A stretch of DNA of 64,000 nt. It comes from an uncultured Thiotrichaceae bacterium (GTDB lineage: Bacteria > Pseudomonadota > Gammaproteobacteria > SZUA-229). Each line of letters opens with the position of its first letter. Within the stretch, counting starts at the first letter, position 1. Below the pieces are notes generated by a model. It was not told the DNA's origin, did not search any database, and saw only the letters and a program-made list of their open reading frames with translations. The translations under genes and the position numbers were made by a program. Below are positions 9,343 to 33,055 of this stretch, piece by piece. Location: assembly GCA_964651445.1 (NCBI GenBank), contig CAZYYW010000001.1, forward strand, positions 173 through 64,172, read 5' to 3'.

Positions 9343-9783
9343 CTACTCCTGATTACCAATGAAGGATGTTTGTATTGAGGAAGTCGAGCGGTTTATCTGT
9401 TTTTGTATTAATTCAAAATCACCCGCTAAAGGTTTTTCCTCAGGCTTTTGTTGTTTACCAACCATGTCACGTTCCAGCATGTCAGCGATTCCCAGACCAC
9501 CGCCACCACCACTATTAACCAGCTCCAATGCTATTTGTTTATCAAACATTCCTTGGTAAAAACGAGTTTGATCGGATTCTGTAGAGTCACCGCTTATTGT
9601 TGCTTCACGCATTGATTTAAGCATCATCTGTAAAAACAATGCTTCAAACTGTTGCGCGACTTCTTTCGTTGCCGCTTGCGACTGTACGCCATCGTTTTGA
9701 CCCGAGACTTTGGCGCGCAACTTCTGCAAACCACTAAAGTCGGTATAAACACCTGCATCGGCAATGTTATGCATACTATTCAT
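9343..9783 (-). CDS. flgJ: FlgJ rod-binding (rod-cap) protein, single-domain; no C-terminal glucosaminidase domain; likely start MNSMHN at 9783 (ORF track offers 9816)
   Basis: FQMMLKSMR rod-binding motif; N-terminus aligns with E. coli FlgJ from the 9783 start; only about 147 aa. Confidence 0.8.
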   Translation of the reverse strand: MNSMHNIADAGVYTDFSGLQKLRAKVSGQNDGVQSQAATKEVAQQFEALFLQMMLKSMREATISGDSTESDQTRFYQGMFDKQIALELVNSGGGGGLGIADMLERDMVGKQQKPEEKPLAGDFELIQKQINRSTSSIQTSFIGNQE

Positions 9784-9784
9784 T

Positions 9785-10933
9785 TTAGATAACCACCAAC
9801 TCTGCGTGCAGTGCACCCGCCATTTTTAATGCTTCTAATATGGCAACAAGATCACCGGGGGCGGCACCTACCTGATTGACCGCACGTACGATGTCATTCA
9901 AATCAACACCGGGGTCAAATAAGAACATGCGGTTATCATCGGTACTAACATTAAGCTGAGAATCTTGCGTCACTTCTGTATTGCCCACTCGGGCAAAAGC
10001 ATTCGGCTGACTGACAGCTTCACTCTCTTTAATGGTTACCACCAAATTGCCATGTGAAACAGCGGCAGCGGAAACACGTACCGCACTACTAATAACCACA
10101 GTACCGGTTCTTGAATTAATAATGACACGTGCGGCGGCTTCACCTGGTGAAACTTCTATATTTTCAACCATGGATAAAAACGCAATTTTATCCTTTTGCC
10201 TAGTTGGCGCTCTGACTTCAATAGAAATTGGGTCAATGGCTCTCGCCGTACCCTGACCAAAGATTTCATTGATCGCATTCGACATTCTGTTGGCAGTGGT
10301 AAAGTCTGCTGAAAAAAGATTCAACACTATTTGATTTTTACCGCCCAATGTATTCTTAATGGTACGCTCAACAATTGCGCCTTTAGGAATACGCCCGACA
10401 CTGGGTATGTTAATGGTAATTTTTGAACCGTCTGAACCTTCAACACCAAGCCCACCCACAATTAAATTACCCTGTGCAATGGCATAAACCTGACCATCAG
10501 CGCCTTTTAATGGTGACATTAATAAGGTGCCGCCTCGTAAACTCTTGGAGTTTCCAATTGACGATGCAGTAACGTCAATTCTTTGACCTTTTTTGATGAA
10601 AGGCGGCAAGGTAGCATGCAACATTACCGCTGCAACATTTTTTGGCTGCGGATTCACACCCGGTGGAATAACCACACCTAATTGCGATAACATATTTTTC
10701 AAGCTTTGCGCGGTGAAAGAAACCTGACCAACGGAATCGCCACTACCATCAAGACCTACAATCAAACCATAACCAATTAGCTGATTATCACGCATGCCCT
10801 GCACTGTTGAAAGATCTTTAATGCGCTCTGCACTAACCGTTGTTACCGGAACTAATAAGACAAAAATTAACGTTAGGGCTATAAATAGTATATTTCTATC
10901 AAATACCGATTTTGTTGTATGATAATTTTTCAT
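9785..10933 (-). CDS. flgI: flagellar P-ring protein FlgI (likely start MKNYH at 10933, TAATG-coupled to the flgH stop)
   Basis: Signal peptide plus the [12 protein letters not shown] motif. Confidence 0.9.
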
Positions 10934-15641: not shown

Positions 15642-16043
15642 CTAGCTAGTCCCGCTTCTTAAAACAGTCATCATGCCTTTGAACTTGTTACTAAGAAACT
15701 GCAAGCTTGCTTGATAACGGAAGGCGTTTTCTGCGAAGGCACTTTTTTCACGATGAATGTCAACCGTATTACCATCCAGTGAAGGCTGATCCGGTGTGCG
15801 ATATAAAAGTTCTGCAGACGTTTCAGCAGAGGGTATTTGTATATGTTGTGGATGGGTACGGCGCAATGCCGTACTATTTTGAAAACCAACATTTCCCAAT
15901 ATTGATTTAAAATCTATGTCTCTCGCCTTATATCCAGGTGTGTCTGCATTCGCAATATTTGACGCGAGTATCTCTGCACGCTGTGCGCGTATGGCAAGTG
16001 CTTGTGGATGAATTCCTAAAGCGGAATCAAATGAAATCGGCAT
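15642..16043 (-). CDS. flgB: flagellar rod protein FlgB
   Basis: 133 aa; LASNIANADTPGYKARD. Confidence 0.9.
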   Translation of the reverse strand: MPISFDSALGIHPQALAIRAQRAEILASNIANADTPGYKARDIDFKSILGNVGFQNSTALRRTHPQHIQIPSAETSAELLYRTPDQPSLDGNTVDIHREKSAFAENAFRYQASLQFLSNKFKGMMTVLRSGTS

Positions 16044-16092
16044 GTTTTACTCCAACTTTAGCTTTTCTTGTTAAATACATGCTTAAACAAAA

Positions 16093-16109
16093 TGCAAACC
16101 GTATGCCAA
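16093..16109 (-). promoter_or_regulatory. sigma54 (RpoN) promoter for the flgBCDEFGHIJKL operon; minus strand reads TTGGCATacggtTTGCA
   Basis: Minus-strand TGGCAT-N5-TTGCA with canonical GG-N10-GC spacing, about 50 nt upstream of the flgB start. Confidence 0.55.
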
Positions 16110-16442
16110 CTATGCACGATTCGAATATTTTTTATTAAAACCCATGAAAAGTCGTAAGCGGCGGGGCTAACGGATGATTGTGTTGAACCGAAGAAAGGGT
16201 GACTGTAAAGAATAAAAGGAGAAAATAGAAAAAAGTCTGCACGTTGCCGGCAGTTTTTTTCCTCCCAGTGGCAATTGATGTCGTATGAATATCTTTATTG
16301 GTTGAGACATTTTCTTAAAACAAGCACAAAGGAAAATGAAAATACAAAAACCTTCAAGCAAGGTTTTTGTATTCTCAATTGAGGGATGCTACGGACTGGT
16401 TAAACTGGATAGACTAAACTACTCTGGTCAAACAAGCACAGA

Positions 16443-16946
16443 TCAGGCTTGTATCAACGAACGTTTATTTGCTGATCTTACGGATTGGCCGGTATTGTCA
16501 TACAGTTCAGAAGCGGCCGATGCCGCCGGAGAAATTCCTTGTAAAATGTCCAGCGCATGACGTGACTGTTTCGAAATGATTTCGACAATGCTGCCATTAA
16601 CACGATTTCTATCACGGCATTTTTCTGCAACATCTATAAGACTGCTCCATAATTCGGACAGCTGTTTGTTGTCACTGAAGACTTTCTTGTTTTCTTGTGG
16701 CGCTAACGTTTTTTCACCTGCCATGTTCATATTGCAGGATTCAAGCAAGCTCTCTCGCTGCCTGGAGATCACTTCGAGTTGCAGCATCCGTTCCTGTTTT
16801 TCACCAACCACGGCTTCTAATATTTCAACATCGTTTTCAGAAAGCACCTTATACTCATGTTCCAATGACTGCAAAAGCAACCGGGCACATTCCAATTCCT
16901 GCTCGAATACCTGCTTAATTGCATGCTGCTGATTTTTTAAGGGCAT
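16443..16946 (-). CDS. flgN: FlgN-like flagellar export chaperone
   Basis: 167-aa helical protein in the flgA-flgM-flgN position; pattern similar to FlgN. Confidence 0.65.
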   Translation of the reverse strand: MPLKNQQHAIKQVFEQELECARLLLQSLEHEYKVLSENDVEILEAVVGEKQERMLQLEVISRQRESLLESCNMNMAGEKTLAPQENKKVFSDNKQLSELWSSLIDVAEKCRDRNRVNGSIVEIISKQSRHALDILQGISPAASAASELYDNTGQSVRSANKRSLIQA

Positions 16947-17019
16947 GGGTATTTACTCAATGGCTAGCCACGATAGTTAACCACCGCCAACTTGGCTTTA
17001 TGGTCATCACAAATTAACG

Positions 17020-17331
17020 TCAGGATTTTAGAATACTTTCAAATTGCATTAGTTTGTCCGCAACTCTTTCTGCATCAAGCTTGTAGCTACCATCACTGAT
17101 TGCCTGTTTTACCTGTTCCACACGCTGCGTATCAACCACTGGCGCATTGACGACTGAATTATTAAGCTTGCCCAGTTGTACGGCGTTATCTGACAAACTT
17201 ATGGTATCAGCCGTGGAAGACCGACCGGTCTCAAGTTTTGCCGGCGTGCTTTCCACCGCCTGTTTCAGTTGGCTCTCATCTTTCAACCCATGTAACGCGG
17301 GCGGCGATATGCCATTAATATCTATCGACAT
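17020..17331 (-). CDS. flgM: anti-sigma-28 factor FlgM
   Basis: 103 aa; conserved C-terminal sigma28-binding helix ...[25 protein letters not shown]. Confidence 0.8.
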
Positions 17332-17425
17332 AATTTAACTCCTATTATTCTTTTTTTACTATCACACACATTAACGACCATTAATAATAAAACTTTAATA
17401 TTTAATATAAATAGACAAATATTGA

Positions 17426-18139
17426 TTAAATGTCAACTTTAACCTCACCGCTGCCGGTGACAATTCCTTCTAGTTTTTTCTTGGATTTAGTATTAATAAC
17501 GCTTATCCGTTCACCAATGGCACCACTGGCAAGTGCTTTTCCCATCATACGCACCTGCATGTTTCCTGACTGTGCCAGTATTGTGATTGATTGTCCACGC
17601 GAAATAACCTGTGGCTTTTTTAACATGCCCGGTGTCAATACAGTACCGGATGACATCCGTCTTTTTAATTTCATGCCAACACCTTGATTTAACGCTTCAA
17701 AATGCCCATGTGACAAACTAGCGAGATCATATCTTGCCAACTTAATGTCATTTTCCGAAATTATTGTACCTTTTTGTATCTGTCGCGCTGCCACCAAGAC
17801 TTGCTTATAAATACTGATACTGACCGGCACATTTAACGACCACGGTTTTGAGTCAGAACATTTGACACCGACTGTGGTTTTGCCAATGTCTCGGCCACCC
17901 CTGGGCAAAAATGCAGTCAATCTTTTTTCGCATTGTCTCAGCTTTAATCTTGAATCCAGCGAGCCCATTTTAATCTCAGGACGTTTTCCATGCTTGGATG
18001 TCGCATGCTTTGTAATAAATTCTTTTGCCGCCTGATAAATACTGTTATGACTCTGATGTGTCGCCGCATTTAAAACTGGCGTATGCAACATCAGGCATAG
18101 ACACAGAACGAATAACTGTCTGTTAAATATATTATTCAT
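17426..18139 (-). CDS. flgA: flagellar P-ring assembly chaperone FlgA
   Basis: 237 aa; signal peptide; SAF/FlgA C-terminal domain (GQSITILAQSGNMQV...GERISVIN). Confidence 0.8.
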   Translation of the reverse strand: MNNIFNRQLFVLCLCLMLHTPVLNAATHQSHNSIYQAAKEFITKHATSKHGKRPEIKMGSLDSRLKLRQCEKRLTAFLPRGGRDIGKTTVGVKCSDSKPWSLNVPVSISIYKQVLVAARQIQKGTIISENDIKLARYDLASLSHGHFEALNQGVGMKLKRRMSSGTVLTPGMLKKPQVISRGQSITILAQSGNMQVRMMGKALASGAIGERISVINTKSKKKLEGIVTGSGEVKVDI

Positions 18140-18157
18140 GACTCAATATGTGGCTCA

Positions 18158-19297
18158 CTAACCATGTTGTAGTGGATTTTTTCTAATCCATGCATCATTC
18201 AAGCCGTATTTATCTGCTACATCCAGCACAAAAGCATCGGCTTGCTGTCTATTTGTAAAACCATGCACGGTAAGACGATACACGGCTTGACCGTTAACCA
18301 TTGCCTGTTTTATTTTAGGTGATAAGTTTTCATCTGTTATTTGTGTGGCTAACATTTCTGCTTTATTTTTACGCTTGAATGAAGCGATAGCAACGCTGTA
18401 GCGGTTGTCTACAAGCAGTGACTGTGTTGTTGCCGCCGCCTGCTGACTAGCCGCCAACAAGTCCTTCTGAACATCTGCAATATTGCCAAGCGGCGGGTTC
18501 GTTTCTTTCAGTTTTATTTTTACAGATTGCAGTTGGGTTTTTAAGGACGCTATTTCATCCACCAATGTGGCGGCCGATGTGCTAACCAATTTGTCGGCAT
18601 GAGTCTCTGCTGCAAGCGCCGTTATTATTTCCGCAGAGGATTCTTTCGTTGCTAAAGACTGATTAGCCGTTTTTACCAACTGCAAATCAATTTGCATCGG
18701 TAGTAGTTTTTCAGTTATATCTATCTGGTTAGTCGATATTTCGGCATTTTCAGGTACGACTTTATTTTGCCATTTATCTTCATAAACAATCAATGATTTT
18801 TCCAACGCATTCGTGCGCACATTAAAGTGGAAGAAACTAATCACCAGCAAGCTAATGACAGTCAGTAACAACAGTAATTGAAACCAACTACCGATGCCTG
18901 TCTTTAACAGCGTTGTTTTTGATTGTGAAAAAAAATCCGGTTTTTTTTCTCGCTTCAGACTGGCTGTTGATAACGATACAATATCTTCTTGCTGTTTTTT
19001 GTCGGTGTTTGTATTAGCCGGTGATTGCTTTACCTTCTGTTTCACCATGAAATCACGCACACTCATTGGTTTACCAGCCTCAGCGGCATCCGCTGGTCCG
19101 TCATCCTGAATCCCCTGCAGTATACTGCTTAGATTCGGGTTTTCCGATGAGATATAATTTTCAGTTGCTGTTATCACTGTTTTATCCCCTACCTGCGTTT
19201 TATTTTTACGACTTTCTCTACGCAATATCGCTGTAAAATCAGAAATAGTCGGATCTGATTCATCTTGCGCTGGGTACATGTTGCTCATGGCAACCAT
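18158..19297 (-). CDS. single-pass membrane protein with a C-terminal SPOR (peptidoglycan-binding) domain
   Basis: One TM helix (SWFQLLLLLTVISLLVISFF); C-terminal AVYRLTVHGFTNRQQADAFV SPOR-like fold; 1-nt overlap with the upstream GGDEF gene. Confidence 0.5.
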   Translation of the reverse strand: MVAMSNMYPAQDESDPTISDFTAILRRESRKNKTQVGDKTVITATENYISSENPNLSSILQGIQDDGPADAAEAGKPMSVRDFMVKQKVKQSPANTNTDKKQQEDIVSLSTASLKREKKPDFFSQSKTTLLKTGIGSWFQLLLLLTVISLLVISFFHFNVRTNALEKSLIVYEDKWQNKVVPENAEISTNQIDITEKLLPMQIDLQLVKTANQSLATKESSAEIITALAAETHADKLVSTSAATLVDEIASLKTQLQSVKIKLKETNPPLGNIADVQKDLLAASQQAAATTQSLLVDNRYSVAIASFKRKNKAEMLATQITDENLSPKIKQAMVNGQAVYRLTVHGFTNRQQADAFVLDVADKYGLNDAWIRKNPLQHG

Positions 19298-20229
19298 TAC
19301 ACGTTACCTGATTCCCTGCTGCCATCAGGCAAATCACCGTAAATACGATTCTTCCCAAGTATTTTTGCATGATATAACGCGGTATTAACTCGATCGAATA
19401 ATTTTGTCGCGGTATCATCATAAGCAACGGTAACAACGCCGGCACTCAAAGTGAAGGCAATATCATTGCCTTGATATTGACAGCTATCAGACAAAACATA
19501 GTCTTTTATTCTTCTCGCCGCTTCTACCGATTCAGGCTTACTGGTATGTGGCAAGAAGACAAGAAACTCGTCGCCGCCATTACGATAAACAACATCACTG
19601 TAACGTGCTTTCTTTTCAATTCGTCGCGCCACTTCCACCAAAACTGCGTCACCCGCTGACTTACCGTGTTGCTTATTAATGCCTTTCAAGTCATCCAGAT
19701 CAAACATTAATAAAGAGAATGGTTTTTTATAGCGTTGCGCTCTTTTTATTTCCAGCTCAACGATGTCATGGTAATAACTGCCATTTCGTAAACCTGTAAG
19801 CTCATCACGTTGCGCAAAGCGAATGACCTGTTGAAAGCGTAAAGCGTTACGCAAAGGTAAAGCCAGACCCGCAATCATCACTTCGATGGTTTCCAGTTCT
19901 GCTTTTACAAACTCAGCATCACGGGTAATGGTTAAACTGCCCAGTGAACGCTGAGCATAAGTGAGCACATAATTGCACCGATGATCACCCGCTGTGCCAT
20001 TTATCAAGGAGGTTTTTGTTAACTCATCCTTATACTCAATACTGTCAAAGGGTATCTGTGCTTGCAGATCGCTGATAAAGGTGTCAAATAGTTGGTAGAA
20101 ATCCAATGCTTCATGCAAGCGATTAATGAAACTTGTTAGCCATGCGCTGCGGACGGTGTCCATGCACATATTGCTTTCATTAGCGATTTTTCTGTTATTT
20201 GCATGCAACTGTATAATACGTTCAGCCAT
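19297..20229 (-). CDS. GGDEF-domain diguanylate cyclase with an N-terminal sensory domain of unknown type
   Basis: GGDEF motif (NGGDEF), I-site RYSD five residues upstream, DELTGL linker. Confidence 0.85.
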   Translation of the reverse strand: MAERIIQLHANNRKIANESNMCMDTVRSAWLTSFINRLHEALDFYQLFDTFISDLQAQIPFDSIEYKDELTKTSLINGTAGDHRCNYVLTYAQRSLGSLTITRDAEFVKAELETIEVMIAGLALPLRNALRFQQVIRFAQRDELTGLRNGSYYHDIVELEIKRAQRYKKPFSLLMFDLDDLKGINKQHGKSAGDAVLVEVARRIEKKARYSDVVYRNGGDEFLVFLPHTSKPESVEAARRIKDYVLSDSCQYQGNDIAFTLSAGVVTVAYDDTATKLFDRVNTALYHAKILGKNRIYGDLPDGSRESGNV

Positions 20230-20266
20230 CTGTGTTTCCTCGAAGCATTAATCTTACGTTACAACA

Positions 20267-20283
20267 AAGCAACAACTGTGCCA
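20267..20283 (-). promoter_or_regulatory. sigma54 promoter driving the GGDEF-SPOR-flgA-flgM-flgN operon; minus strand reads TGGCACagttgTTGCT
   Basis: Minus-strand TGGCAC-N5-TTGCT with GG-N10-GC spacing, about 45 nt upstream of the GGDEF ATG. Confidence 0.55.
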
Positions 20284-20446
20284 GAACACCTCGTACAGTA
20301 ATAACAGTGGCTTAGCATAAAAAAATTTTATTAACGACAATTTTTTGACGCTAGACGGCAGGCTGTATTCTGCACAATGAAGCAATAGGCGGCAAAGTTT
20401 TGCCGCTATGTTAGAAACCCTTAGGATTGAGGGTGGATTAAATACA

Positions 20447-21850
20447 CTAAGAAAGGAGCCCTATAGAGGGTTTTGCATGTGCCATCCCTGGTTTATACGG
20501 CAAACTAAAAGTAAAAATCGCTCCCGCTTCACCGCTAACATTGCCGGCCGTTATCATGCCGCCGTGGTAGTGGATGATTTCCCGGCAAATTGCCAAACCT
20601 AGGCCGGTTCCACCAACGCCATTTACGGTTTTACTGGATTGTTCAAACTCATTAAAGATGCTTTCCAGTTCAGCTTCCGGTATACCGATGCCCTGATCGC
20701 GGATGATTAGCGATATCGCCGACACAGCACCCTTCATGGCATACTCCGTTTGCACATCAATTTCAGTTCTTTCAAAATTCACCTTGATGCTGGCGCCTGG
20801 CGGTGAAAACTTTATCGCATTCGACAACAAATTCTTGATGACCTGGTTTATCTTAATATTGTCAAACATTGCGAGGGTTTCTACTGTTGCCGGTACAACC
20901 TCTATTTCTAACGCTTTGCCGCTAAACAGTGGGCTTAATTCATCAATCGCTTTTGCCAATGTTGTTTGCAAGTCATTTTCTGTAACGATAAACTGCATAC
21001 GACCCGCTTCTAATTTAGAGAGATCAAGCAGGTCATCTAATAAGCCGAGTAAACGTTGTCCACTATCATTAATACGCATAAAATAATTACTGATTTTTGT
21101 ATTGATGTTAACGTCTACTTTTTCTGCGCCCAAACTGGAAAAGCCCAGTATTGCATGCATTGGTGTACGCAATTCATGCGACATTTTGGCTAAAAAATCT
21201 GATTTGGCACGGTTTGCTAATTCCGCCTTTTCACGCTGTAACAACAATTCATGTTCACGCTCATGGGAACGCACTTGCATCTTCAGCATTTCCGTCCAGT
21301 TTTGACAGTACGTTTTTGTGTTTTTCAATAAAAATAAAACCAGCAGAAATAACATGACCTCTAAAAAAACCAGATGATAACCCTGAATATACGTCTGTAG
21401 TTGCAAAGAAATCATCAGTGGCGTTATTACAATCAATATAAAAATCACCGAAAACTGCATCTGATACGATAAAGTCGTAGTAGCACCCGTCACTAATGTC
21501 GCGATGACCATGACTAATAACAACACGCTCTGACCATCAACCACCGGTATCAGAATAAGGCTTAAAGCGCCCCAGCAAGTCGCCGAAAAGAGGGTCCCAA
21601 ATAGTATAAACAGCCTCGCCCTTTTAAAATTTACCCTGCTCTCTCTTTTTGCTTTTTTATATGACAGTGCGGCAAGCAGGCGCAATAGGTCTACGCCAAG
21701 AATAGTGACAAACCAAAAATGGAATGCCATTGATTCGACTTTTGTGCTGAACATTAAATATAAAGCAATAACCGCACTAGCCATGATGGCAATCGAATAA
21801 AATCGGTTACTGTTAATAAGGTCAATTTGTGCTTCTTCAACTTCTGTCAT
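20447..21850 (-). CDS. membrane sensor histidine kinase (6-TM N-terminal sensor, HisKA, HATPase_c)
   Basis: H-box MSHELRTPMHAILGF; ATP-lid GTGLGLAI; about 200-aa polytopic N-terminal domain. Confidence 0.85.
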   Translation of the reverse strand: MTEVEEAQIDLINSNRFYSIAIMASAVIALYLMFSTKVESMAFHFWFVTILGVDLLRLLAALSYKKAKRESRVNFKRARLFILFGTLFSATCWGALSLILIPVVDGQSVLLLVMVIATLVTGATTTLSYQMQFSVIFILIVITPLMISLQLQTYIQGYHLVFLEVMLFLLVLFLLKNTKTYCQNWTEMLKMQVRSHEREHELLLQREKAELANRAKSDFLAKMSHELRTPMHAILGFSSLGAEKVDVNINTKISNYFMRINDSGQRLLGLLDDLLDLSKLEAGRMQFIVTENDLQTTLAKAIDELSPLFSGKALEIEVVPATVETLAMFDNIKINQVIKNLLSNAIKFSPPGASIKVNFERTEIDVQTEYAMKGAVSAISLIIRDQGIGIPEAELESIFNEFEQSSKTVNGVGGTGLGLAICREIIHYHGGMITAGNVSGEAGAIFTFSLPYKPGMAHAKPSIGLLS

Positions 21851-22178
21851 GGATATTATTTTTTTATTATTGTCATTACTTTACATTTTTTTACATAAAG
21901 CTTATTGCCAGTCTCTGGCGAATACTTATTATGTTAGGCAATCTTGGATTGATTCTGAATAAGCAGATTGCACGTCAGTTCCACGAATTAATCCGAGGTT
22001 CCTTAAAACACACTACAAAAACTTAACATATATTGAGAATAATATATTAAAGTTTAATGGCTTATATCCCGATATTGTTAACGATACTATAAATAACAAT
22101 ACTCTGGCTGTCATTATTAAATGATTCAAATGGACGTAACTATGAACACTAACTCAGTTTCAGAAATATTCATAAGCA

Positions 22179-25100
22179 GTGCAGGCTAACCATATGTCTG
22201 ATAAAAAACAAGCCGAGATGTCTGATAAAAAACAAGCCGAGCTAAAACGGCAGATTGCTCAACTAAAAAAAACCAATCGCACATTAAACGAGCGCATTGC
22301 TCGTACCATAAACAATGCCAATGAACCCGACAATCTACCCACAACTCTCTCTCAGACAGACGACAGTATAGGCAAAAAAACACACATAGTAACAACAAGT
22401 CGTCCCGAAATAAAAAAAGCTGCGGCTGTAAACAGTAATTTTCTGGCAACCATAAGCCACGAAATACGAACACCCATGAATGGCATTATGGGCATGCTGG
22501 AACTATTGCTTAAAACACCGGTGAATGAACGTCAACGCCATCTAGCCAGTACCGCACATAATTCTGCTGAATCCTTGTTGATGGTTATAAATGACATCCT
22601 CGATTTTTCCAGGATTGATTCTGGCAAATTACAGTTGTGCAAAGACAGCTTCAACCTGCTCCACTTGTTTAACGATGTTGTTGACCTGATTAGCGACAGT
22701 GCGCAGAAAAAAAATATCCGGTTAATTGTTCAACTCCCTGAAACAATAGAACATGATGTTATTGGCGACTCTGTTCGGCTACGTCAGGTAATGCTAAACA
22801 TACTGAACAATGCCATCAAGTTTACCGAACAGGGCGAGGTTGAACTATGCGCCACAATCGATACGCTAGACCGGTGTATGAAGGTCAACGTCGTGGTGCG
22901 CGATACGGGCATAGGCATAGAAACCGCCCGTCAACCCATTATTTTTGAACCATTCGAACAAGAAGGCAGCGCTCGTTCAACCAGAAATTTTGGTGGTACC
23001 GGTCTTGGCCTGGCGATTTCCCGCGATCTCATTGCACTTATGGGGGGTGAAATTACGCTGCAAAGTACGCTTGGTGAAGGCAGCGCCTTTCACTTTTCTA
23101 TCGAGCTAGGCATTGCAAGCCATACCACGAATGAAAAGGAAGTCAATAATGCTCGTATTTTACTGGCAGAAGACAACCATCTTAACCAGGAGGTCATGCG
23201 TGAGCAGTTAGATGTTTTAGGTTTCAACATTGAAGTCGTTGAAAACGGTCTACAGGCTCTTGATGCGATCAAACAAAATACCTATTCGCTGGTTTTTATG
23301 GACACTCATATGCCGTGCATGGACGGTTTTGCAGCCACCGAGGCCATTCGAACTTTTGAGCAGGAACAACGCCGCCCGCCTGTGCCTATTATCGCTCTAA
23401 CCACTGACACTTCTGCAAACATAGAAGCGCATTGTCAAAGAGTCGGCATGAATGCATCGATGGCAAAACCGTTTTCCATTGACGACATCGAAAATGTTTT
23501 AAGTGCATGGTTATGTAGCACAACGCAAACAAAACCTGCGATAAAAGATAAGGGAGAGCCTTCCATTGTAGACAGCGCAGAAGTGTTAAATATGGCGACC
23601 ATTGAACAGCTACGAAAACTGGGTAATAACAGTGGCAAGGATACTCTGGGCAATGTTATTAAACGCTTTCAGGAATCTTCTCTAGCTCAGCTACAAAGCA
23701 TGCAGCTTGCCGTAAAAAATAAAGATTACAGTGATTTTTCAGCCATCGCGCATGCTTTGAAATCTTCCAGCGCAACCCTTGGTGCCAGTCTGGTTTACAA
23801 CACCAGCGCCGAATTAGAACAACTCGCCAATGCCAATAAAACTGACGCCATCGCACAACACGTCATTCGACTGGAAAGACAATTACAGCTTTCTTTACAG
23901 ACCTTATATGATTTAAAAACAGCGCCCTACCCTGTCGGTACACCCACCGTTGGCAGCGGTCAGTATCTACTGCTGGTCGATGATGATATGGCTACACTGG
24001 AAATCATTCAAACGGCAATGCAACAATTCGGCTACAGAATAGACAGTGCCAGCAGCGGCCAGCAGGCACTGCAACTGATGCTCAATAATACGTATGATCT
24101 GGTCATTACCGATTTGCAAATGCCTGGCATGGACGGCTACGCACTATGCAGTGCTATTCGTGTGAACTACAGCCCAGAAACGCTGCCTATTTTGATTCTC
24201 ACCAGCACCGCTGATGATGTACAGGTACAACATGCTTACGAAACCGGCATTAGCAACTTTATTGTTAAACCGGTTAACTTGCTCAATCTTGCTTATACCG
24301 TGCTCTTTACTCTGCAAAATACGCGCAATGCTAAGGCGCTGTGGCATAACCAGCAATTACTGGAAGCGGCTGAGCATACCGCCCAAGTCAGCCACTGGTC
24401 ATGGGAAATAAACAAACAACAAATACAGTTCTCTCGCCATTTGCAACGCTACTTCAGTCAGCCTCTTGACGGCGTAACAAGTCTCGATGAATTAATTGCC
24501 GCCATTGGCAATAAAAGCATGCACAGCGCAGTAAAATCCTGCCTCAGCAATGGTCGTGAATCCAGTTGGGAGCAAGAAATTCATCAAACAGAAGCGACGC
24601 CTGCTCGCTATCTTCTACACCGCATTCGCATGGTTAACAGCAAGGATGAAAAACCCATGCTAATAGGCACGGTTCAGGAAATATCTTCCATTCGCCGCGC
24701 TGAACAACGCATTATGGAATTGGCCTATTATGATTCCCTTACTAAACTAAGCAGCCGTTCTAATTTTAACAATCAGCTAAAAAACTTAATTATCAGCTCA
24801 CGTCGGCGCTCTGAAAAATTTGCCTTGTTATACCTTGATTTGGATGAATTTAAAAACATCAACGACAGCTTTGGCCATGATGTAGGAGACCAACTGCTGA
24901 TAGAAGTTGCCAATCGTTTGCGCGAGCTACTTCGTGAATCCGACTTTGCCAGCCGTTTGGGTGGTGATGAGTTCTGCCTGTTAATAAACGATATTGAAGA
25001 CAATCTTTTTGCCGCCAACATTGCTCAACGGTGCCTAGAGTTACTGGCACTACCCTTCACTCTAGCCGGTACAACACTCACGCCTCATGCCAGCATCGGC

Positions 25101-26030
25101 ATCGCCATTTATCCTCATGATGGCAACAATAGCGGCACTTTGATCAAAGCCGCCGATACCGCCATGTACGAAGCCAAGAAAGCTGGCAAGCGACAATATG
25201 CATTTTACGAACCGGCGATGACAGATGCAGCGCAACACCGTTTAACCATTGAAAGCGATTTACGCAGCGCCCTCAAAGAACAACAGTTTGAACTATATTA
25301 CCAACCAAAAATTTCTCTTAGAAACGGAAAAATTCAAAGTGTCGAAGCCCTGATCCGTTGGAATCACCCTCACGGAAAACAACTAACACCGGATAAATTT
25401 ATTGCCGATGCAGAGCGCATAGGCCTAATCAAAGAACTCGGCGAGTGGGTGGTGCTGCAAGCCTGTAAGCAAATTAAAAAATGGCAGAATCAAGGTGTCA
25501 GCAAGCTGGCTGTTGCCGTCAATATTTCGCCTCAACATTTTGCTGAGACCAACTTTGCGCAAAATATTGCCAATATCGTGAACGCCAACGGCGTTTCATC
25601 TTCACTGATTGAAATAGAAATTACTGAAAGTACATCGCGTGACCAACAGGTATTTTTAAACACCTGCCGTCAATTACGTGAATTAGGTTTCACAACGGCG
25701 ATCGATGATTTTGGCACCGGCTACTCATCACTGTCAGTACTCAAAGGCGCATCTGTAGACGTATTAAAGATTGACCGTGAATTTATTCGCCACTTACCGA
25801 ATGATACACAATCATCAGTACTCGTTGGCACCATGCTAGGCATGAGCAAGGCACTGGGTTTGCAAGTAGTCGCCGAAGGCGTTGAAACCGAAGCCCAGCT
25901 AAAGGTACTTATCGCTATGGGCTGTCACATGGCACAGGGCTATTATTTCAGCAAACCGGTACCCGCTGCAGATATTCCAGCATTGACCAAATGCTGTTTT
26001 CGTCGACCCAATGCCGAACAGGTTGCATAA
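22179..26030 (+). CDS. multidomain signalling protein: HisKA-HATPase, REC, Hpt, REC, PAS, GGDEF, EAL. GTG start at 22179; ATG starts at 22194 and 22218
   Basis: H-box SHEIRTPMNG; two receiver domains (DTHMPCMDG, TDLQMPGMDG); Hpt HALKSSSATLGA; GGDEF with I-site RESD; EAL motifs EALIRW and DDFGTGYSSL. Confidence 0.9.
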   Translation: MQANHMSDKKQAEMSDKKQAELKRQIAQLKKTNRTLNERIARTINNANEPDNLPTTLSQTDDSIGKKTHIVTTSRPEIKKAAAVNSNFLATISHEIRTPMNGIMGMLELLLKTPVNERQRHLASTAHNSAESLLMVINDILDFSRIDSGKLQLCKDSFNLLHLFNDVVDLISDSAQKKNIRLIVQLPETIEHDVIGDSVRLRQVMLNILNNAIKFTEQGEVELCATIDTLDRCMKVNVVVRDTGIGIETARQPIIFEPFEQEGSARSTRNFGGTGLGLAISRDLIALMGGEITLQSTLGEGSAFHFSIELGIASHTTNEKEVNNARILLAEDNHLNQEVMREQLDVLGFNIEVVENGLQALDAIKQNTYSLVFMDTHMPCMDGFAATEAIRTFEQEQRRPPVPIIALTTDTSANIEAHCQRVGMNASMAKPFSIDDIENVLSAWLCSTTQTKPAIKDKGEPSIVDSAEVLNMATIEQLRKLGNNSGKDTLGNVIKRFQESSLAQLQSMQLAVKNKDYSDFSAIAHALKSSSATLGASLVYNTSAELEQLANANKTDAIAQHVIRLERQLQLSLQTLYDLKTAPYPVGTPTVGSGQYLLLVDDDMATLEIIQTAMQQFGYRIDSASSGQQALQLMLNNTYDLVITDLQMPGMDGYALCSAIRVNYSPETLPILILTSTADDVQVQHAYETGISNFIVKPVNLLNLAYTVLFTLQNTRNAKALWHNQQLLEAAEHTAQVSHWSWEINKQQIQFSRHLQRYFSQPLDGVTSLDELIAAIGNKSMHSAVKSCLSNGRESSWEQEIHQTEATPARYLLHRIRMVNSKDEKPMLIGTVQEISSIRRAEQRIMELAYYDSLTKLSSRSNFNNQLKNLIISSRRRSEKFALLYLDLDEFKNINDSFGHDVGDQLLIEVANRLRELLRESDFASRLGGDEFCLLINDIEDNLFAANIAQRCLELLALPFTLAGTTLTPHASIGIAIYPHDGNNSGTLIKAADTAMYEAKKAGKRQYAFYEPAMTDAAQHRLTIESDLRSALKEQQFELYYQPKISLRNGKIQSVEALIRWNHPHGKQLTPDKFIADAERIGLIKELGEWVVLQACKQIKKWQNQGVSKLAVAVNISPQHFAETNFAQNIANIVNANGVSSSLIEIEITESTSRDQQVFLNTCRQLRELGFTTAIDDFGTGYSSLSVLKGASVDVLKIDREFIRHLPNDTQSSVLVGTMLGMSKALGLQVVAEGVETEAQLKVLIAMGCHMAQGYYFSKPVPAADIPALTKCCFRRPNAEQVA
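22194..22241 (+). repeat. perfect 24-bp tandem duplication (ATGTCTGATAAAAAACAAGCCGAG x2) that includes the start codon
   Basis: Read directly; encodes MSDKKQAE-MSDKKQAE. Confidence 0.9.
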
Positions 26031-26033
26031 CCC

Positions 26034-26852
26034 ATGACGGTACACCATATTATCAAGCAGGAAATAGCACGTCAGCCTGACCTTCCGGTTTTACCCCCCG
26101 GCATATCTTCATTATTAAAAATGCTAAACGACGATGATATTGGCTACAGCGAGCTTGCCGACAAACTTGAAAATTTTCCATCCATTGCAATAAAAATAGT
26201 CTCAACGGCCAATTCTGCCTGGGCATCACCGGGTACGCCTATTACCACATTACGCAGTTGCTGCGCGCGCATTGGTGTCCCCGTGGTTCGCAGCATCGCC
26301 ATTGCAATCGCGGTGGCGCAAATATTTGACCCCAGTCGCTGCCCGGCATTTGATGCCAAAAAATATTGGTTAAGCGCCCTGTTAACTGCTGAAGCTGCAC
26401 AGCTATGTGCAAAAGACAATAATGACGTCTGTTCCGACACCGCCCGATTAGCCGGGCTGCTGCATAACATTGGTTTGTTATGGCTGGCCACACAAAAACC
26501 CAAAGCAACAAGCAAAGCCATCAACTTTAAAAAAAGCAATGAAGCACTTTCGCTCGCTCACTGTATGGCACAGTATGTAGAAGTGGATTATTTTACTGCC
26601 GGTGGTTATCTAGCCTCCTTTCTCGAACTGCCAGAACAATTGTCCGAGCTTATCGCCTGCCCCGCTTTAAATATAGTGCAGGATGACATCGCTATGCAGA
26701 ATCATCACCGTGCCTTACAGCTCGCCAGCAGCGCACTAACGGCTAACAATACTGCTGAGCATGACGAAATAATAGAGGATCCCTGCTTTGATCCTCTAAT
26801 GCATAAATTACCCGGTATCGAAACCATGGCGCGCAGCCTATTTTTTTCTTAA
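26034..26852 (+). CDS. HDOD-domain protein; start is 4 nt after the upstream stop, so translationally coupled to the HK-GGDEF-EAL gene
   Basis: HDOD signature LPVLPPGISSLLKMLNDDD...; HD-like HNIGLL. Confidence 0.8.
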   Translation: MTVHHIIKQEIARQPDLPVLPPGISSLLKMLNDDDIGYSELADKLENFPSIAIKIVSTANSAWASPGTPITTLRSCCARIGVPVVRSIAIAIAVAQIFDPSRCPAFDAKKYWLSALLTAEAAQLCAKDNNDVCSDTARLAGLLHNIGLLWLATQKPKATSKAINFKKSNEALSLAHCMAQYVEVDYFTAGGYLASFLELPEQLSELIACPALNIVQDDIAMQNHHRALQLASSALTANNTAEHDEIIEDPCFDPLMHKLPGIETMARSLFFS

Positions 26853-26888: not shown

Positions 26889-26913
26889 GAGACCTTTTCA
26901 CGATACAGGTCTC
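26889..26913. terminator. hairpin (GAGACCT-N11-AGGTCTC) between two convergent genes
   Basis: 7-bp inverted repeat read directly. Confidence 0.35.
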
Positions 26914-27722
26914 TATATATCCGGAAGTGCCATCTTATCCAAAACACCCTGCAGAATATCCAGATTGCGATGATAATTGATAATCAGCACACCTTGATCT
27001 TCATTGATATCAACATGTGCGCCAAAGTGTTCGGTTAACCGGGTTTCAAGTGCCAACACATCAGCTGATTTTTTAACGGATGCAGACGGTTGTAACACCG
27101 GCTTATGTGCACGCATAGTTCTTGCCACAGCTTCCGTTTGTTGAACCGTTAGATGCTCATCTTTGATTTGTTGTAATAAAAGTTGTTGTTGTTCCAATGG
27201 CAATCCAGCCATAATTTTTGCATGGCCAAAACCAATCATCGAACATTGTTTAATGTTGTCTAATAAGTGCTTTTCTATATTTAAAATTCGCATCAAATTA
27301 CACACTTCAGAACGGCTTTTCCCAATCAACGCGCCAGCCATTGTGAGGCTAATATTTTGTCTTTTAATACGCTGTTTTAATGCCAGCGCGCGGTCAATAA
27401 AATGCTCCTCAGTATTTATTAGATGTCCGTAATAGCCGTCAATTTCAGCAGAACTTAAATAATCCATATGTTTGACTGACACGGTTTGTTGTTGCAGCAT
27501 CTGAGCTAGTAGCCAGATTTTTGGTGAGCCAAGAATTTCAAAACGTGCCGGAGAATGCGCTAAAGCACGGACATGAACGTCCTCATGCAAACCGTATAAA
27601 CGCGCCCGCTCAAGTTCCTCCACGCTGATTTCTGCTTGCGTTAAACGCTGGGTCCACAATCCCGTTTGAAGTAAGTCGACATCAATTGGCATAACCGTGA
27701 GTATAGCGCAGATTGTTTTCAT
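26913..27722 (-). CDS. ParB-like protein with a degenerate N-terminal CTP/arginine motif (GSPKIWL instead of GERRWRA); canonical ParB HTH and C-terminal dimerisation region
   Basis: HTH GKSRSEVCNLMRILNIEKHLLDNIKQ...GHAKIMAGL matches the ParB HTH; C-terminus VLALETRLTEHFGAHVDINEDQGVLIINY is ParB-like. Confidence 0.6.
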   Translation of the reverse strand: MKTICAILTVMPIDVDLLQTGLWTQRLTQAEISVEELERARLYGLHEDVHVRALAHSPARFEILGSPKIWLLAQMLQQQTVSVKHMDYLSSAEIDGYYGHLINTEEHFIDRALALKQRIKRQNISLTMAGALIGKSRSEVCNLMRILNIEKHLLDNIKQCSMIGFGHAKIMAGLPLEQQQLLLQQIKDEHLTVQQTEAVARTMRAHKPVLQPSASVKKSADVLALETRLTEHFGAHVDINEDQGVLIINYHRNLDILQGVLDKMALPDI

Positions 27723-27890
27723 ATGAAAACAAATGGTATGAAAACTCTATCAAACGGCTGTTGTCACGTCTCATATAAAGCGTGCGAGGCTTCTTCACTG
27801 CCCTGTGTTTCTTCTATTAGAAACAACTGACCGGCGAAAAATACTCAACGAATCCCGCATAAACTTATATATATCAATTAGATACAAAAC

Positions 27891-27907
27891 AATTCAACCG
27901 TTGAATT
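27891..27907. repeat. 17-bp palindrome AATTCAAC-c-GTTGAATT just downstream of parB; candidate partition or operator site
   Basis: Perfect 8-bp arms read directly. Confidence 0.3.
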
Positions 27908-27911
27908 ATTT

Positions 27912-28871
27912 CTATTTAGCAAGAAAACGAGTTAACGCCTTAATTACTGCAGTTTTGTCCGCCACTGCTGCCTTGCTCACCTTAATAGAAATTGCTCCGC
28001 TAGCCGATTGCTTTATCAACACCCCTTTAACATCACCCGCAACCGTGTACGTTTTTTCTACAGGCCGGCTCGAACCACTTTGCACGGCACTCTTACCGAC
28101 AAAAACCAATGTTTTCATTACACTCAATGTGCTGTCTGTCTGCCCTTTAAACTCACGCGCCTTTTCCAAAATCAATTTTTTTGACTTCGCTGATTTGTTC
28201 ATCAAGGAACGCAACATGATCGCCTGTTTAACACTGATCTCAAATTTGTTTGGCAATACAGACGCAATCTCCGGCGCCATGTCTGCTATCGCCATCCAGT
28301 TGGACAATGTGCCCTCACCAATGTCATTTTCAAGACAATAATTTTTCTGGTTTCCAGCATAAATTTCAGAGATAACTTTTTTTGCATTCATCGCTTTTTC
28401 ATACGCCGTTGTATCGTCACGTTCCTGATTTTCACTGCGCATGATTTTATAGGCTTGTTTGTCATCGACGTCTATTAGCGCAATATGAATTTTCTTTGCG
28501 GGAAGATGAGAACAAGCCCAGAAACGTCGAGTGCCAATAATAATCTGATAGGCTTTTTTACCCGCGGGGTCACGCCGTGCAATGACAGCCTGTAATTGCG
28601 TATTTTTTTGTATATCATCAACAAGTGATTTACAATTTTCCATACTGAGACCGTCATAAATACGGTCATTATATTTCCACAAACAGCAATCATCGGTCGA
28701 AACCGTTAGTTCTCGCAGCCCTGCCTCTGCCGCTTCATCCAGTACTGGATTCGGGTTCTGTGAGAGAAACGCCCTACCACGGCTGTGCAAACCTGTTTTA
28801 TGACGCGGTTTGACATCGATGTTTTCCAGGTCAGCGCCTTCTGCAATATCGTTTATTCTTGTTCTAGCCAT
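27912..28871 (-). CDS. parB: ParB/Spo0J family partition protein (plasmid type)
   Basis: N-terminal ParB box IIGTRRFWAC (GxRR motif); follows parA. Confidence 0.8.
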   Translation of the reverse strand: MARTRINDIAEGADLENIDVKPRHKTGLHSRGRAFLSQNPNPVLDEAAEAGLRELTVSTDDCCLWKYNDRIYDGLSMENCKSLVDDIQKNTQLQAVIARRDPAGKKAYQIIIGTRRFWACSHLPAKKIHIALIDVDDKQAYKIMRSENQERDDTTAYEKAMNAKKVISEIYAGNQKNYCLENDIGEGTLSNWMAIADMAPEIASVLPNKFEISVKQAIMLRSLMNKSAKSKKLILEKAREFKGQTDSTLSVMKTLVFVGKSAVQSGSSRPVEKTYTVAGDVKGVLIKQSASGAISIKVSKAAVADKTAVIKALTRFLAK

Positions 28872-28890
28872 TGCTTTATCTCCGGTTTAT

Positions 28891-30072
28891 TTATGCTGTT
28901 TTTATTTTGTTTCTTATGCTCGGCCAGTTTTTCAGCAATTCATGCAACACTTCTTCGCACATCGCATCTACTGAAGCCATGGCGGATCTGAAGCTTTTAT
29001 AACTGGTTGTCTGACCATGAACTTCGAACAGCGTTTTAAATTCACTGGCAGCATTATCGATAGCGGTTGATTCATAGATAATACTCTCCAGCATGTATTC
29101 GTTACCAAAAATGCGACGGGCAAGTGCTAAAATATCATCTTCTGCGCGCGCATATTTCTCGTTGGTGTTGCGTTGTTTTTTCTTGGAAGTCACCAATTTA
29201 ACGAAATCATATTCAATTTGCGTATCATAATGGCCTTGAATTTCATCCAAAGTTTCATGCAACATATTAAAAAACTGTAACGAAGAGGTGAAATCCAACA
29301 TTCTTGGTGGCATCGGCACTAACAAGCTGGTGGCTGCAACCAGAGCATTAATACTGAGCATGCCCAGTGCCGGTGGTGGGTCAATAATAATGACTTCAAA
29401 ATCTTTTTTAATGCTTTCAATGCCTTCTGGCAAATACGAGTAAATCGGTCGTTGCGCATGGTTTGCTGCCACCATGTATTCCGCATTGTAAAGTTGCAAA
29501 TTAGCTGGAATTAAACTCAGATTTTCGATCATGGTGTCGCGTATAGCATAATGCATAGTCCGTTGCTCACCTTCAAAAAAGGGCAGCAAAGTATCATTGG
29601 CATCAATATCCATATCCGGGGTATAGCCAAATAAGGTCGTCGCTGAAGCCTGACTATCAAGATCAATTAGCAGTACACGAAAACCTCGAATCGCCAACCA
29701 CTGCGAAAGATGAACCGCAATGCTGGTTTTACCCACGCCACCCTTAAAATTTTGCACCGCAAGCACTGCAGGGTCTTCACCCGCTTCTAGCCTCGGCATG
29801 GTATTAAAATGACGACGCGCCCGGTTGATTTCTGATAATGAAAAACCACGCGCGTTGGAGGCGTCGCTACGGGTTGCTTCAATGGCACCCTGCTTCTCAG
29901 CATCTCGAATAGTGGTAGGATGTCGTCCAATAAGCCCCGACGCCTCACCTATTTTAAAAGATTTATTAAAACGTTTTTGACCATCCGGACTAAAAATATG
30001 CGTTTTAATATGTTTAATAATTTTGTCAGAACGCTGAACCAAATCAGCTAGCTCGTTTATGGAAACAGTCAT
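28891..30072 (-). CDS. parA: type Ia ParA/SopA-like partition ATPase with an N-terminal HTH extension
   Basis: Deviant Walker A NFKGGVGKTS; about 100-aa N-terminal extension with an HTH, as in P1 ParA / F SopA; 393 aa. Confidence 0.9.
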   Translation of the reverse strand: MTVSINELADLVQRSDKIIKHIKTHIFSPDGQKRFNKSFKIGEASGLIGRHPTTIRDAEKQGAIEATRSDASNARGFSLSEINRARRHFNTMPRLEAGEDPAVLAVQNFKGGVGKTSIAVHLSQWLAIRGFRVLLIDLDSQASATTLFGYTPDMDIDANDTLLPFFEGEQRTMHYAIRDTMIENLSLIPANLQLYNAEYMVAANHAQRPIYSYLPEGIESIKKDFEVIIIDPPPALGMLSINALVAATSLLVPMPPRMLDFTSSLQFFNMLHETLDEIQGHYDTQIEYDFVKLVTSKKKQRNTNEKYARAEDDILALARRIFGNEYMLESIIYESTAIDNAASEFKTLFEVHGQTTSYKSFRSAMASVDAMCEEVLHELLKNWPSIRNKIKTA

Positions 30073-31379: not shown

Positions 31380-31395
31380 AGTCTGAAAAAAGCAA

Positions 31396-31521
31396 CGTAC
31401 TAAAATAGGTTTAAGGCTTCAGCAAAGCGGTATTATTACTCAAAAGCTGTGTACTAAAAACGGTTTTAGCGTTTTACAATACCGATATAAAACATAAAAA
31501 AACGTACTAATAACGGTTTTA
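31396..31521. repeat. iteron cluster A: three 19-bp direct repeats, consensus CGTACTAAnnnCGGTTTTA
   Basis: Copies begin at 31396, 31449 and 31503. Confidence 0.8.
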
Positions 31522-31622
31522 GTACTTAACAAAGAAATGAAATAACATCGTCTATAACAACATTTCTTTATTAAATCGTTGATTTTTTTAGCTATTTTCA
31601 ACATTGCTATAGTAAATAAAAT

Positions 31623-31631
31623 TTATCCACA
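31623..31631 (+). promoter_or_regulatory. consensus DnaA box TTATCCACA inside an AT-rich stretch between the two iteron clusters
   Basis: Exact 9/9 match to the DnaA box consensus, flanked by an AT-rich tract (31561-31620). Confidence 0.5.
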
Positions 31632-31638
31632 ATCGTGC

Positions 31639-31744
31639 GTACTAAATACGGTTGAACAGTGTACTAATGTCGGTTTTATAGCGTACTAACGATGGTTTTA
31701 TTGCGTACTAAAAAGGGTTTAACAACGTACTAAACACGGTTTAA
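31639..31744. repeat. iteron cluster B: five 19-bp direct repeats at 21-22 bp (two helical turn) phasing; candidate oriV
   Basis: Copies begin at 31639, 31661, 31683, 31704 and 31726, all of the form (C/T)GTACTAAnnnnGGTTnnA. Confidence 0.85.
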
Positions 31745-31907
31745 CAACAATAAGTAACAACTTAAGCTATTGATTTTATTGGTTTTATTGAACAGCTTTA
31801 AACCTTTAGTCTTGTATAGTCTTTATTAAGTCTTTCTTTAGTCAAACACAGTCAGTGTTTTATAAAAGACTTATACATAAAAAACAAACCAAGGGTGAAA
31901 GCACTTT

Positions 31908-32798: not shown

Positions 32799-32822
32799 TA
32801 TTGCACCGAATATTTTATAGCG

Positions 32823-32941: not shown

Positions 32942-33055
32942 CATATTGTTACAATAGGGCATATCTCTTGCATGTTAGTATTAAGCTACACAACAAGAAC
33001 TTAAACTAGTTTGACTATTTGATAGTGAGAACAACACTAATCTGCGTAACCTTAT

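Follow-up and report, generated by a model that had tools for sequence, protein, structure and literature searches.

A GGDEF–SPOR gene pair at the head of a predicted early flagellar operon in an uncultured Thiotrichaceae bacterium

Introduction

Cyclic diguanylate (c-di-GMP) is usually linked to flagella through PilZ brakes, FleQ/FlrA, or late-class phosphodiesterases. Here, we describe an arrangement found in 64,000 nucleotides (nt) of DNA from an uncultured Thiotrichaceae bacterium (GenBank assembly GCA_964651445.1, contig CAZYYW010000001.1, positions 173 to 64,172 of the forward strand; this whole stretch is termed the window). In this window, a gene encoding a GGDEF protein with an RxxD I-site and a gene encoding a SPOR protein lie directly upstream of flgA, flgM, and flgN. 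A sequence-only reading of the window had proposed that c-di-GMP synthesis is thereby hard-wired into the flagellar hierarchy; our analysis suggests that the property kept in this position is c-di-GMP binding. The new element is a GGDEF/I-site protein together with a peptidoglycan-binding partner at the head of a predicted early flagellar operon, clade-wide; no paper describing a GGDEF–SPOR pair in a flagellar operon was found in the literature.

The closest known system is flgAMNZ of Pseudomonas with its product FlgZ. The flgAMNZ operon of Pseudomonas putida and P. aeruginosa encodes FlgZ, a PilZ-domain c-di-GMP effector (bioRxiv 10.1101/2021.08.29.457346; PMC6093933), and in P. putida PflgA depends on FleQ and sigma-54 and PflgM on FliA (bioRxiv 10.1101/2021.08.29.457346). 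Our locus likewise places a putative c-di-GMP-binding protein with flgA-flgM-flgN, behind a FleQ/sigma-54-type promoter and with a predicted sigma-28 promoter before flgM; that is, a sigma-54 promoter plus an internal sigma-28 promoter reproduce the two-promoter flgA/flgMN design of P. putida. However, the effector here is a GGDEF/I-site protein encoded at the 5' end and accompanied by a SPOR membrane partner, whereas in Pseudomonas it is a PilZ protein encoded at the 3' end. Pfam and NCBIfam detected no PilZ domain in any of the five operon proteins of the window.

Three further systems resemble parts of the locus. The degenerate GGDEF proteins PopA, PelD, and CdgA serve as c-di-GMP receptors through RxxD (PMC3974145). 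As in these proteins, the I-site is kept here while the active-site motif decays, and output would be by binding. However, close relatives within the present family alternate between active-looking and degenerate forms, with at least 16 switches; the nucleotide pocket is otherwise conserved, the window copy is fully intact, the N-domain is GAF-like, and the partner is a different one. In P. aeruginosa, the cyclase DgcP is docked on FimV, a peptidoglycan-binding polar hub (PMC7033161). A comparable pairing of a GGDEF protein with a bitopic peptidoglycan-binding protein, allowing local c-di-GMP signalling, is suggested here, although the wall-binding domain is SPOR and not LysM, and the partner is small (379 amino acids (aa)) and encoded in the same operon. 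Finally, Caulobacter crescentus uses the landmark TipN and the c-di-GMP receptor TipF for its polar flagellum (PMC3792480). The likeness is a functional analogy only: an enzyme-fold protein that binds c-di-GMP but is catalytically inactive is tied to a landmark derived from the division site and controls assembly of the polar flagellum. TipF has an EAL fold, TipN is a coiled coil without SPOR, and there is no sequence relationship.

Results and discussion

The GGDEF and SPOR genes head a predicted flagellar transcription unit

The GGDEF and SPOR genes had been described as overlapping by 1 nt and lying directly upstream of flgA-flgM-flgN on the same strand, and Pfam placed all five genes exactly so (Table 1), each above its curated cut-off. 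One base is common to the stop codon of the GGDEF gene and the start codon of the SPOR gene (TAATG at 19297), the gaps between the SPOR gene and flgA and between flgA and flgM are 18 and 94 nt, respectively, and GAGGA precedes the ATG of the GGDEF gene. The GGDEF and SPOR genes thus appear to be the first genes of a flagellar transcription unit that a conserved sigma-54 promoter precedes; the predicted order is sigma-54 promoter, GGDEF gene, SPOR gene, flgA, internal sigma-28 promoter, flgM, flgN, and terminator.

The sigma-54 promoter proposed previously was recovered. The site TGGCACAGTTGTTGCT fits the pattern TGGCAC-N5-TTGCW, with GG and GC ten bases apart and with the correct strand and distance, and is the sole exact TGGCAC-N5-TTGC match on either strand of the window. 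Its end lies 38 nt, and not 45 nt, before the ATG of the GGDEF gene, which is a trivial correction. The site was kept in all 15 upstream regions compared (the window and 14 related genome loci), 36–61 nt before a conserved MAE start. Because it also occurs in all 14 related loci, it lies far beyond chance expectation.

Co-transcription with flgA-flgM-flgN was only partly upheld as it had been stated. It is favored by the short gap before flgA and by the scans for promoters and terminators. No sigma-54 or sigma-28 site was present within 300 nt upstream of flgA in the window. A terminator scan of the operon region gave no convincing candidate ahead of a perfect hairpin with a U-run after flgN, which would mark the end of the operon, ahead of the sigma-54 promoter of flgB itself. 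However, flgM and flgN also have a predicted sigma-28 promoter of their own. In this site, TAAAGTTT-N11-GTCGTTAA, both the -35 and -10 elements and their spacing equal those before the flagellin gene (promoter at 4865..4839, minus strand), indicating that it is the form of the sigma-28 promoter in this organism; its -10 element differs at two positions from the enteric GCCGATAA. A sigma-28-type site was present at an equal distance before flgM in all 11 relatives whose sequence reached flgM.

Several other candidates were set aside. Sigma-70-like and terminator-like matches in 15900..20500 were not used, as their counts were at or below those in shuffled sequence. The histidine kinase gene upstream, a frequent but not invariable neighbor among related loci, was dropped as an operon member because the promoter elements separate it from the GGDEF gene. 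An Rfam search of the whole window returned no match, indicating no riboswitch or known RNA element in the leader.

The gene order is conserved in uncultured relatives

The GGDEF protein has approximately 113 close relatives of approximately 310 aa with 45–76% identity, after which the scores fall sharply. Every close relative derives from a metagenome or an uncultured member of the Gammaproteobacteria, and several are labelled Thiotrichaceae. We sampled fourteen species-representative genome loci (L002–L015) and added three metagenome contigs chosen for divergent or degenerate GGDEF proteins (LGGRY, AGDKF). The GGDEF gene was followed by a SPOR gene and flgA in all 12 genome loci that extended far enough, with flgM and flgN next in all 11 that extended further, and the three contigs showed the same gene order despite their degenerate motifs. 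In total, the order GGDEF-SPOR-flgA was kept in 15/15 informative loci, down to 48% identity. Of the 14 loci that reached the junction, 11 had GGDEF and SPOR genes that overlapped or were separated by at most 17 nt (the widest gaps were 108 and approximately 230 nt), which suggests that the two proteins are produced in a fixed proportion. Homologue and locus searches did not find the pair outside a flagellar context.

Four distant loci (L009, L012, L013, and L015) showed longer spacers between the SPOR gene and flgA and an extra sigma-54-like site 30–61 nt before flgA. In these lineages, flgA is probably also transcribed alone. The same four loci carry a divergently oriented gene of unknown family between the kinase and GGDEF genes (380–412 aa in L009, L012, and L013; two open reading frames (ORFs) in L015); the L012 copy had no match in NCBIfam.

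More distant GGDEF relatives (30–35% identity) occur in genomes of Cellvibrio, Pseudomonadales, and Methylococcaceae in non-flagellar neighborhoods. Those in L016, L019, and L022 are preceded by ubiG-like, HAD phosphatase-like, and short-chain dehydrogenase-like genes, as judged from N-terminal sequence only, and those in L016, L018, L019, L022, and L023 are followed by rluB-like and scpB-like genes on the opposite strand. None of the distant relatives inspected had a SPOR gene beside it. They constitute a separate orthologous group.

Among the distant relatives, only one from Acidihalobacter lay near flgA-flgM-flgN. In this metagenome-assembled genome (L024:5881-10596), the gene after a GGDEF relative with 31% identity encodes a protein that NCBIfam matched best to the YcgR flagellar brake (E = 9e-17, but 61 bits against a cut-off of 400), and the two genes face a convergent cheR-flgN-flgM-flgA block. 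This locus is a second, independent link between the GGDEF lineage and flgAMN.

The I-site of the GGDEF protein is universal, whereas the catalytic residues are not

The GGDEF domain (PF00990) scored 121.8 bits against a cut-off of 23.8. An AlphaFold2 model of the whole protein (predicted local distance difference test score of 81) showed an N-domain with a helix-helix-four-strand fold (residues approximately 26–105), a long helix (109–139), and the GGDEF domain (139–295). The best full-length Foldseek matches of the model were the bacteriophytochrome-linked cyclase 5llw and the diguanylate cyclase Dcsbis 4zmu, both of which we take to be GAF-type sensor-plus-GGDEF proteins, and the modelled GGDEF domain superposed on the solved GGDEF domains of PleD, WspR, and DosC at 1.3–2 Å. 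The model thus shows a predicted soluble cytoplasmic protein in which a linker helix joins a GAF-like domain to a GGDEF domain.

The active site and I-site had been called intact, and this was correct for the window copy. All catalytic and substrate residues were present (D177, D179, N185, D194, G218-G-D-E-F222, and K289), the I-site R209-Y-S-D212 lies five residues ahead of the GGDEF motif, and the domain could be aligned with active cyclases along its whole length. Because every catalytic residue is intact, the window protein probably also makes c-di-GMP in this genome, under product inhibition.

The best named relative was the Shewanella oneidensis cyclase DgcS (NF051473; PMC10238267), which shares the N-domain and GGDEF domain and matched over its full length (residues 19–295 against 18–287 of 291). 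The score was 136.9 bits against the 400 required for an equivalog, and identity with DgcS was therefore rejected. To our knowledge, DgcS has no SPOR partner or flagellar context.

We compared 108 full-length GGDEF orthologues. The RxxD I-site was kept in every one of them. In contrast, D177, N185, D194, xG[DE]E, and K289 were all kept in only 40, and the full set together with a canonical GG[DE]EF motif in 27; 68 of the 108 lacked one or more of the catalytic or substrate residues. E221, the fourth residue of the motif, was kept in 58 orthologues and was mostly K, Q, R, or A in the other 50, and its state changed at least 16 times on a neighbor-joining tree. A glutamate at the fourth position is needed for catalysis, as known from work on PleD and WspR. 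Variation at the first position, as in AGDEF and SGDEF, is compatible with activity. Calling the degenerate orthologues inactive is a prediction. As RxxD is universal and the catalytic set is in the minority, the property kept in the operon slot would be c-di-GMP binding and not synthesis. We infer that the GGDEF protein is first of all a c-di-GMP-binding protein, for which synthesis is optional and lineage-specific. The claim of hard-wired c-di-GMP synthesis was therefore overstated: across the family, the hard-wired component appears to be a c-di-GMP-binding protein, with cyclase activity as a lineage-specific extra.

The simplest competing explanation is a plain active diguanylate cyclase that raises c-di-GMP whenever the early flagellar genes, and with them the anti-sigma-28 factor, are expressed. 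The complete residue set and whole-domain alignment of the window copy, the proximity to DgcS, and the 40 orthologues with all residues are in its favor. However, the orthologues that have lost residues retain the operon position, the SPOR partner, and RxxD, indicating that synthesis cannot be what keeps the gene here; moreover, flgM-flgN are also under their own sigma-28 promoter. We therefore consider the plain cyclase rather unlikely, although it is the strongest of the competing explanations. Same-slot orthologues that alternate between intact and broken active sites while always keeping the I-site constitute a natural experiment, which allows one to ask what a GGDEF domain does once synthesis is dispensable.

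Palindromes upstream of the promoter point to a FleQ-type activator

Two 14-bp palindromes, GGCAAAACTTTGCC and GTCAAAAAATTGTC, precede the sigma-54 site. In the aligned upstream regions, the proximal one was found at -64 to -76 from the -24 element in 15/15 loci, and the distal one, with at most one mismatch, at -118 to -121 in 10/15. Only four GNCAA-N4-TTGNC boxes occur in the whole window; two are those before the GGDEF gene, and one (52074..52087, plus strand) lies 125 nt upstream of a gene for a FleQ-type enhancer-binding protein. None of these boxes lies before the flgB, flagellin, or flgM promoters. The terminator scan also listed a hairpin at 20406..20389, which overlaps the distal palindrome; it was rejected as a terminator because no T-run follows and because it matches the palindrome family at a conserved distance in relatives.

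The consensus of the Pseudomonas FleQ box is GTCaNTAAAtTGAC (PMC6120874, PMC8125075). Both palindromes share its architecture and are therefore candidate sites for a FleQ-type activator. The candidate activator, encoded next to motB (53399..54352), aligns to residues 139–486 of P. aeruginosa FleQ (E = 4e-124). GAFTGA is retained, as are the equivalents of R144 (LFRS), R185, N186, E330, and R334, residues that contact c-di-GMP in FleQ (PMC10723142). These features suggest that the GGDEF operon belongs to the early flagellar operons of the FleQ/sigma-54 "class II" type and depends on a FleQ-type activator. With a sigma-54 site but without a box, the flgB operon is probably part of the next tier.

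The SPOR protein carries a conserved cytoplasmic motif

The SPOR domain (PF05036) scored 31.4 bits against a cut-off of 21 and covers residues 298–372 of 379. To compare the proteins, orthologues were picked by synteny; Pfam found SPOR in all 12 of them, with a best E value of 7.7e-12. From the sequence and from the periplasmic role of SPOR domains, we infer a bitopic protein with a cytoplasmic tail, a transmembrane helix at approximately 145–167, a periplasmic coiled coil, and the C-terminal SPOR domain. The region between the single hydrophobic helix and SPOR matched only coiled-coil proteins such as Lpp and PspA.

The protein evolves fast, with 19–30% identity among the syntenic orthologues. 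A word-indexed search found only the protein itself and a profile search five relatives, whereas an exhaustive search found 119, of which 45 had E <= 1e-10. Alignment of 57 full-length representatives from these 119 revealed a nearly invariant 17-residue motif, N.N[LI]S[SN][VIL][LI]..I.D[DE]GPA, at cytoplasmic residues 53–69 (NPNLSSILQGIQDDGPA) within an otherwise variable tail. I63, D65, and G67 were present in 57/57 representatives and A69 in 56/57; identity outside the motif was approximately 25%, and the conservation of the motif equalled that of the SPOR core. The motif matched no known motif, and this cytoplasmic signature, N.N[LI]S..[LI]..I.D[DE]GPA, is unique to this SPOR family. Its conservation suggests a binding site, for which the co-produced GGDEF protein is the obvious candidate partner, and it can be used directly in interaction studies.

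At the division site, SPOR domains reportedly bind glycan strands without stem peptides. DamX, DedD, and FtsN, which are division proteins, share the predicted architecture: the N-terminus is cytoplasmic, a single transmembrane helix leads into a linker in the periplasm, and SPOR lies at the C-terminus. However, the present protein shows no similarity to them outside SPOR, has the family-specific cytoplasmic motif, and lies behind a flagellar promoter; NCBIfam returned no family for it, including FtsN, DamX, DedD, and RlpA, and only the generic SPOR domain matched. The shared architecture raises the possibility that the pair forms a module for cell division or the envelope that has nothing to do with flagella and merely sits between a flagellar promoter and flgA. 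The separate sigma-54-like site before flgA in four relatives and the non-flagellar neighborhoods of the distant GGDEF relatives are consistent with this explanation. Nevertheless, the position is kept in every informative locus, the sigma-54 site and FleQ-type box are conserved before the GGDEF gene itself, and the pair was not found outside a flagellar context. We thus regard a division module as very unlikely.

Alternatively, the SPOR protein may be a structural component in the periplasm, either of the basal body or of the route by which the basal body crosses peptidoglycan, with the GGDEF protein as its cytoplasmic c-di-GMP-sensing regulator in a LapD-style inside-out control. The SPOR gene directly precedes flgA, which encodes the P-ring chaperone, in all loci, and a long periplasmic coiled coil with a wall-binding domain would suit such a role. 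In addition, FlgJ in the window (9343..9816, minus strand; 157 aa) consists of a rod-binding domain only and has neither a muramidase nor a glucosaminidase domain. The peptidoglycan must therefore be opened for the rod by a different enzyme, so that a wall-directed factor other than FlgJ is needed. In contrast, Pfam and NCBIfam detected no enzymatic domain in the SPOR protein and no similarity to known basal-body ring proteins (SPOR was its only Pfam match, and NCBIfam gave none), and SPOR domains are known for septal and not flagellar targeting. We consider a structural basal-body role quite unlikely.

A wall-anchored c-di-GMP sensor pair as a proposed composite model

Taken together, we propose that an early FleQ-type/sigma-54 operon encodes a wall-anchored c-di-GMP sensor pair, a composite to which we assign an even chance of being right. 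In this model, the FleQ-type activator would bind the two palindromes and, with sigma-54, start transcription approximately 30 nt before the GGDEF gene. Transcription would proceed through the SPOR gene and flgA, probably into flgM-flgN, and end at the hairpin after flgN, with sigma-28 at the internal promoter providing a later, second input to flgM-flgN. The GGDEF protein would bind c-di-GMP at RxxD. The 17-residue cytoplasmic motif of the SPOR protein would dock the GGDEF protein and hold it at the membrane, while the periplasmic SPOR domain would fix the pair on stem-peptide-free glycan, that is, at the division site or new pole. As a wall-anchored module, the pair would sense c-di-GMP and, in some lineages, also produce it; it would be made as basal-body assembly begins and would couple the c-di-GMP state to flagellar assembly or placement. 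Catalytically intact forms, as here, may supply c-di-GMP locally, which could have a dampening effect on the FleQ-type activator, itself c-di-GMP-sensitive.

We regard the architecture of the operon as far better established than the mechanism of the proteins, and several points weigh against the composite. D179, N185, D220, and K289 are conserved even among orthologues without E221, indicating that the pocket may still bind GTP or work in an unorthodox manner. The interaction between the GGDEF and SPOR proteins is suggested solely by gene coupling and the conserved motif, and targeting to the pole or septum is an extrapolation from other SPOR proteins. The FleQ-type protein has no N-terminal REC-like domain and is only a candidate for binding the palindromes. 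The extra sigma-54-like site in the four distant relatives indicates that co-transcription of flgA is not obligatory in the clade. Moreover, all organisms carrying the operon are uncultured.

A more novel reading, which we find improbable as it stands, is that the pair is a gammaproteobacterial counterpart of the TipN/TipF logic of Caulobacter. The SPOR domain would read stem-peptide-free glycan remaining from division and would thereby mark the new pole, the motif would recruit the GGDEF protein, and c-di-GMP at the I-site would license or block flagellar assembly there. If this were true, the family would have been caught switching repeatedly between an enzyme-plus-sensor and a pure sensor.

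Feature coordinates and other genes in the window

Table 1. Positions of the operon, its predicted control elements, and the candidate activator in the window
Feature	Position	Strand	Remark
Histidine kinase gene	21850..20447	-	Upstream neighbor of GGDEF gene
Intergenic region, histidine kinase/GGDEF gene			217 nt; contains the promoter elements
Distal 14-bp palindrome GGCAAAACTTTGCC (GNCAA-N4-TTGNC)	20404..20391	-	Start 121 nt upstream of -24 element
Proximal 14-bp palindrome GTCAAAAAATTGTC	20349..20336	-	Start 66 nt upstream of -24 element
Predicted sigma-54 (-24/-12) promoter TGGCACAGTTGTTGCT	20283..20268	-	Exact TGGCAC-N5-TTGC match
GGDEF gene	20229..19297	-	310 aa; Pfam GGDEF, 121.8 bits
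SPOR gene	19297..18158	-	379 aa; Pfam SPOR, 31.4 bits, residues 298-372
flgA (P-ring assembly chaperone)	18139..17426	-	Pfam ChapFlgA, ChapFlgA_N, SAF; NCBIfam TIGR03170
Predicted internal sigma-28 promoter TAAAGTTT-N11-GTCGTTAA	17397..17371	-	39 nt 5' of flgM ATG, between flgA and flgM
flgM (anti-sigma-28 factor)	17331..17020	-	Pfam FlgM; NCBIfam TIGR03824
flgN (chaperone of hook-associated proteins)	16946..16443	-	Pfam FlgN
Predicted intrinsic terminator	16377..16337	-	18-bp perfect hairpin and U-run after flgN; folding z = -4.56
Predicted flgB sigma-54 site	16108..16094	-	Pattern scan
flgB	start 16043	-	Opens next transcription unit
FleQ-type sigma-54 enhancer-binding protein gene	52212..53327	+	371 aa; Pfam; candidate activator

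The window contains other c-di-GMP genes. A gene for a 1283-aa kinase-REC-Hpt-REC-GGDEF-EAL protein (22179..26030, plus strand) is followed by an HDOD protein gene (26034..26852). Its EAL domain has canonical EAL, DDFGTG, and EGVE motifs. A sigma-28 site, TAAAGTTT-N12-CCCGATAT, precedes this gene at 22048..22075 (plus strand), and an equivalent site precedes the homologous gene or operon in L008, L082, L083, and L085. With the I-site GGDEF gene under predicted FleQ-type/sigma-54 control and the GGDEF-EAL gene behind a conserved sigma-28 site, the c-di-GMP genes of this clade appear to be attached to both the early and the late flagellar tiers, which supports a connection between c-di-GMP and the flagellar hierarchy more strongly than the GGDEF gene alone. 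Two sites, one of the sigma-28 type (46912..46886) and one sigma-54-like (46973..46959), lie upstream of a REC-GGDEF-EAL gene (44752..46662, minus strand), and a gene for a 568-aa GGDEF protein (39880..41586) follows REC-SpoIIE and REC-HATPase_c_2 genes.

Between flgL and the flagellin gene lies a gene for a 507-aa TPR and sulfotransferase protein (4910..6433, minus strand), which may modify flagellin. A ParA-like and two ParB-like genes (26913..30072, minus strand) are followed by four ORFs without a Pfam match (30267..35537), and a tyrosine integrase and a DUF4172-Fic protein are encoded at 37434..39598 (minus strand). The region from the ParA/ParB genes to the integrase and Fic genes may be an integrated mobile element beside the flagellar region.

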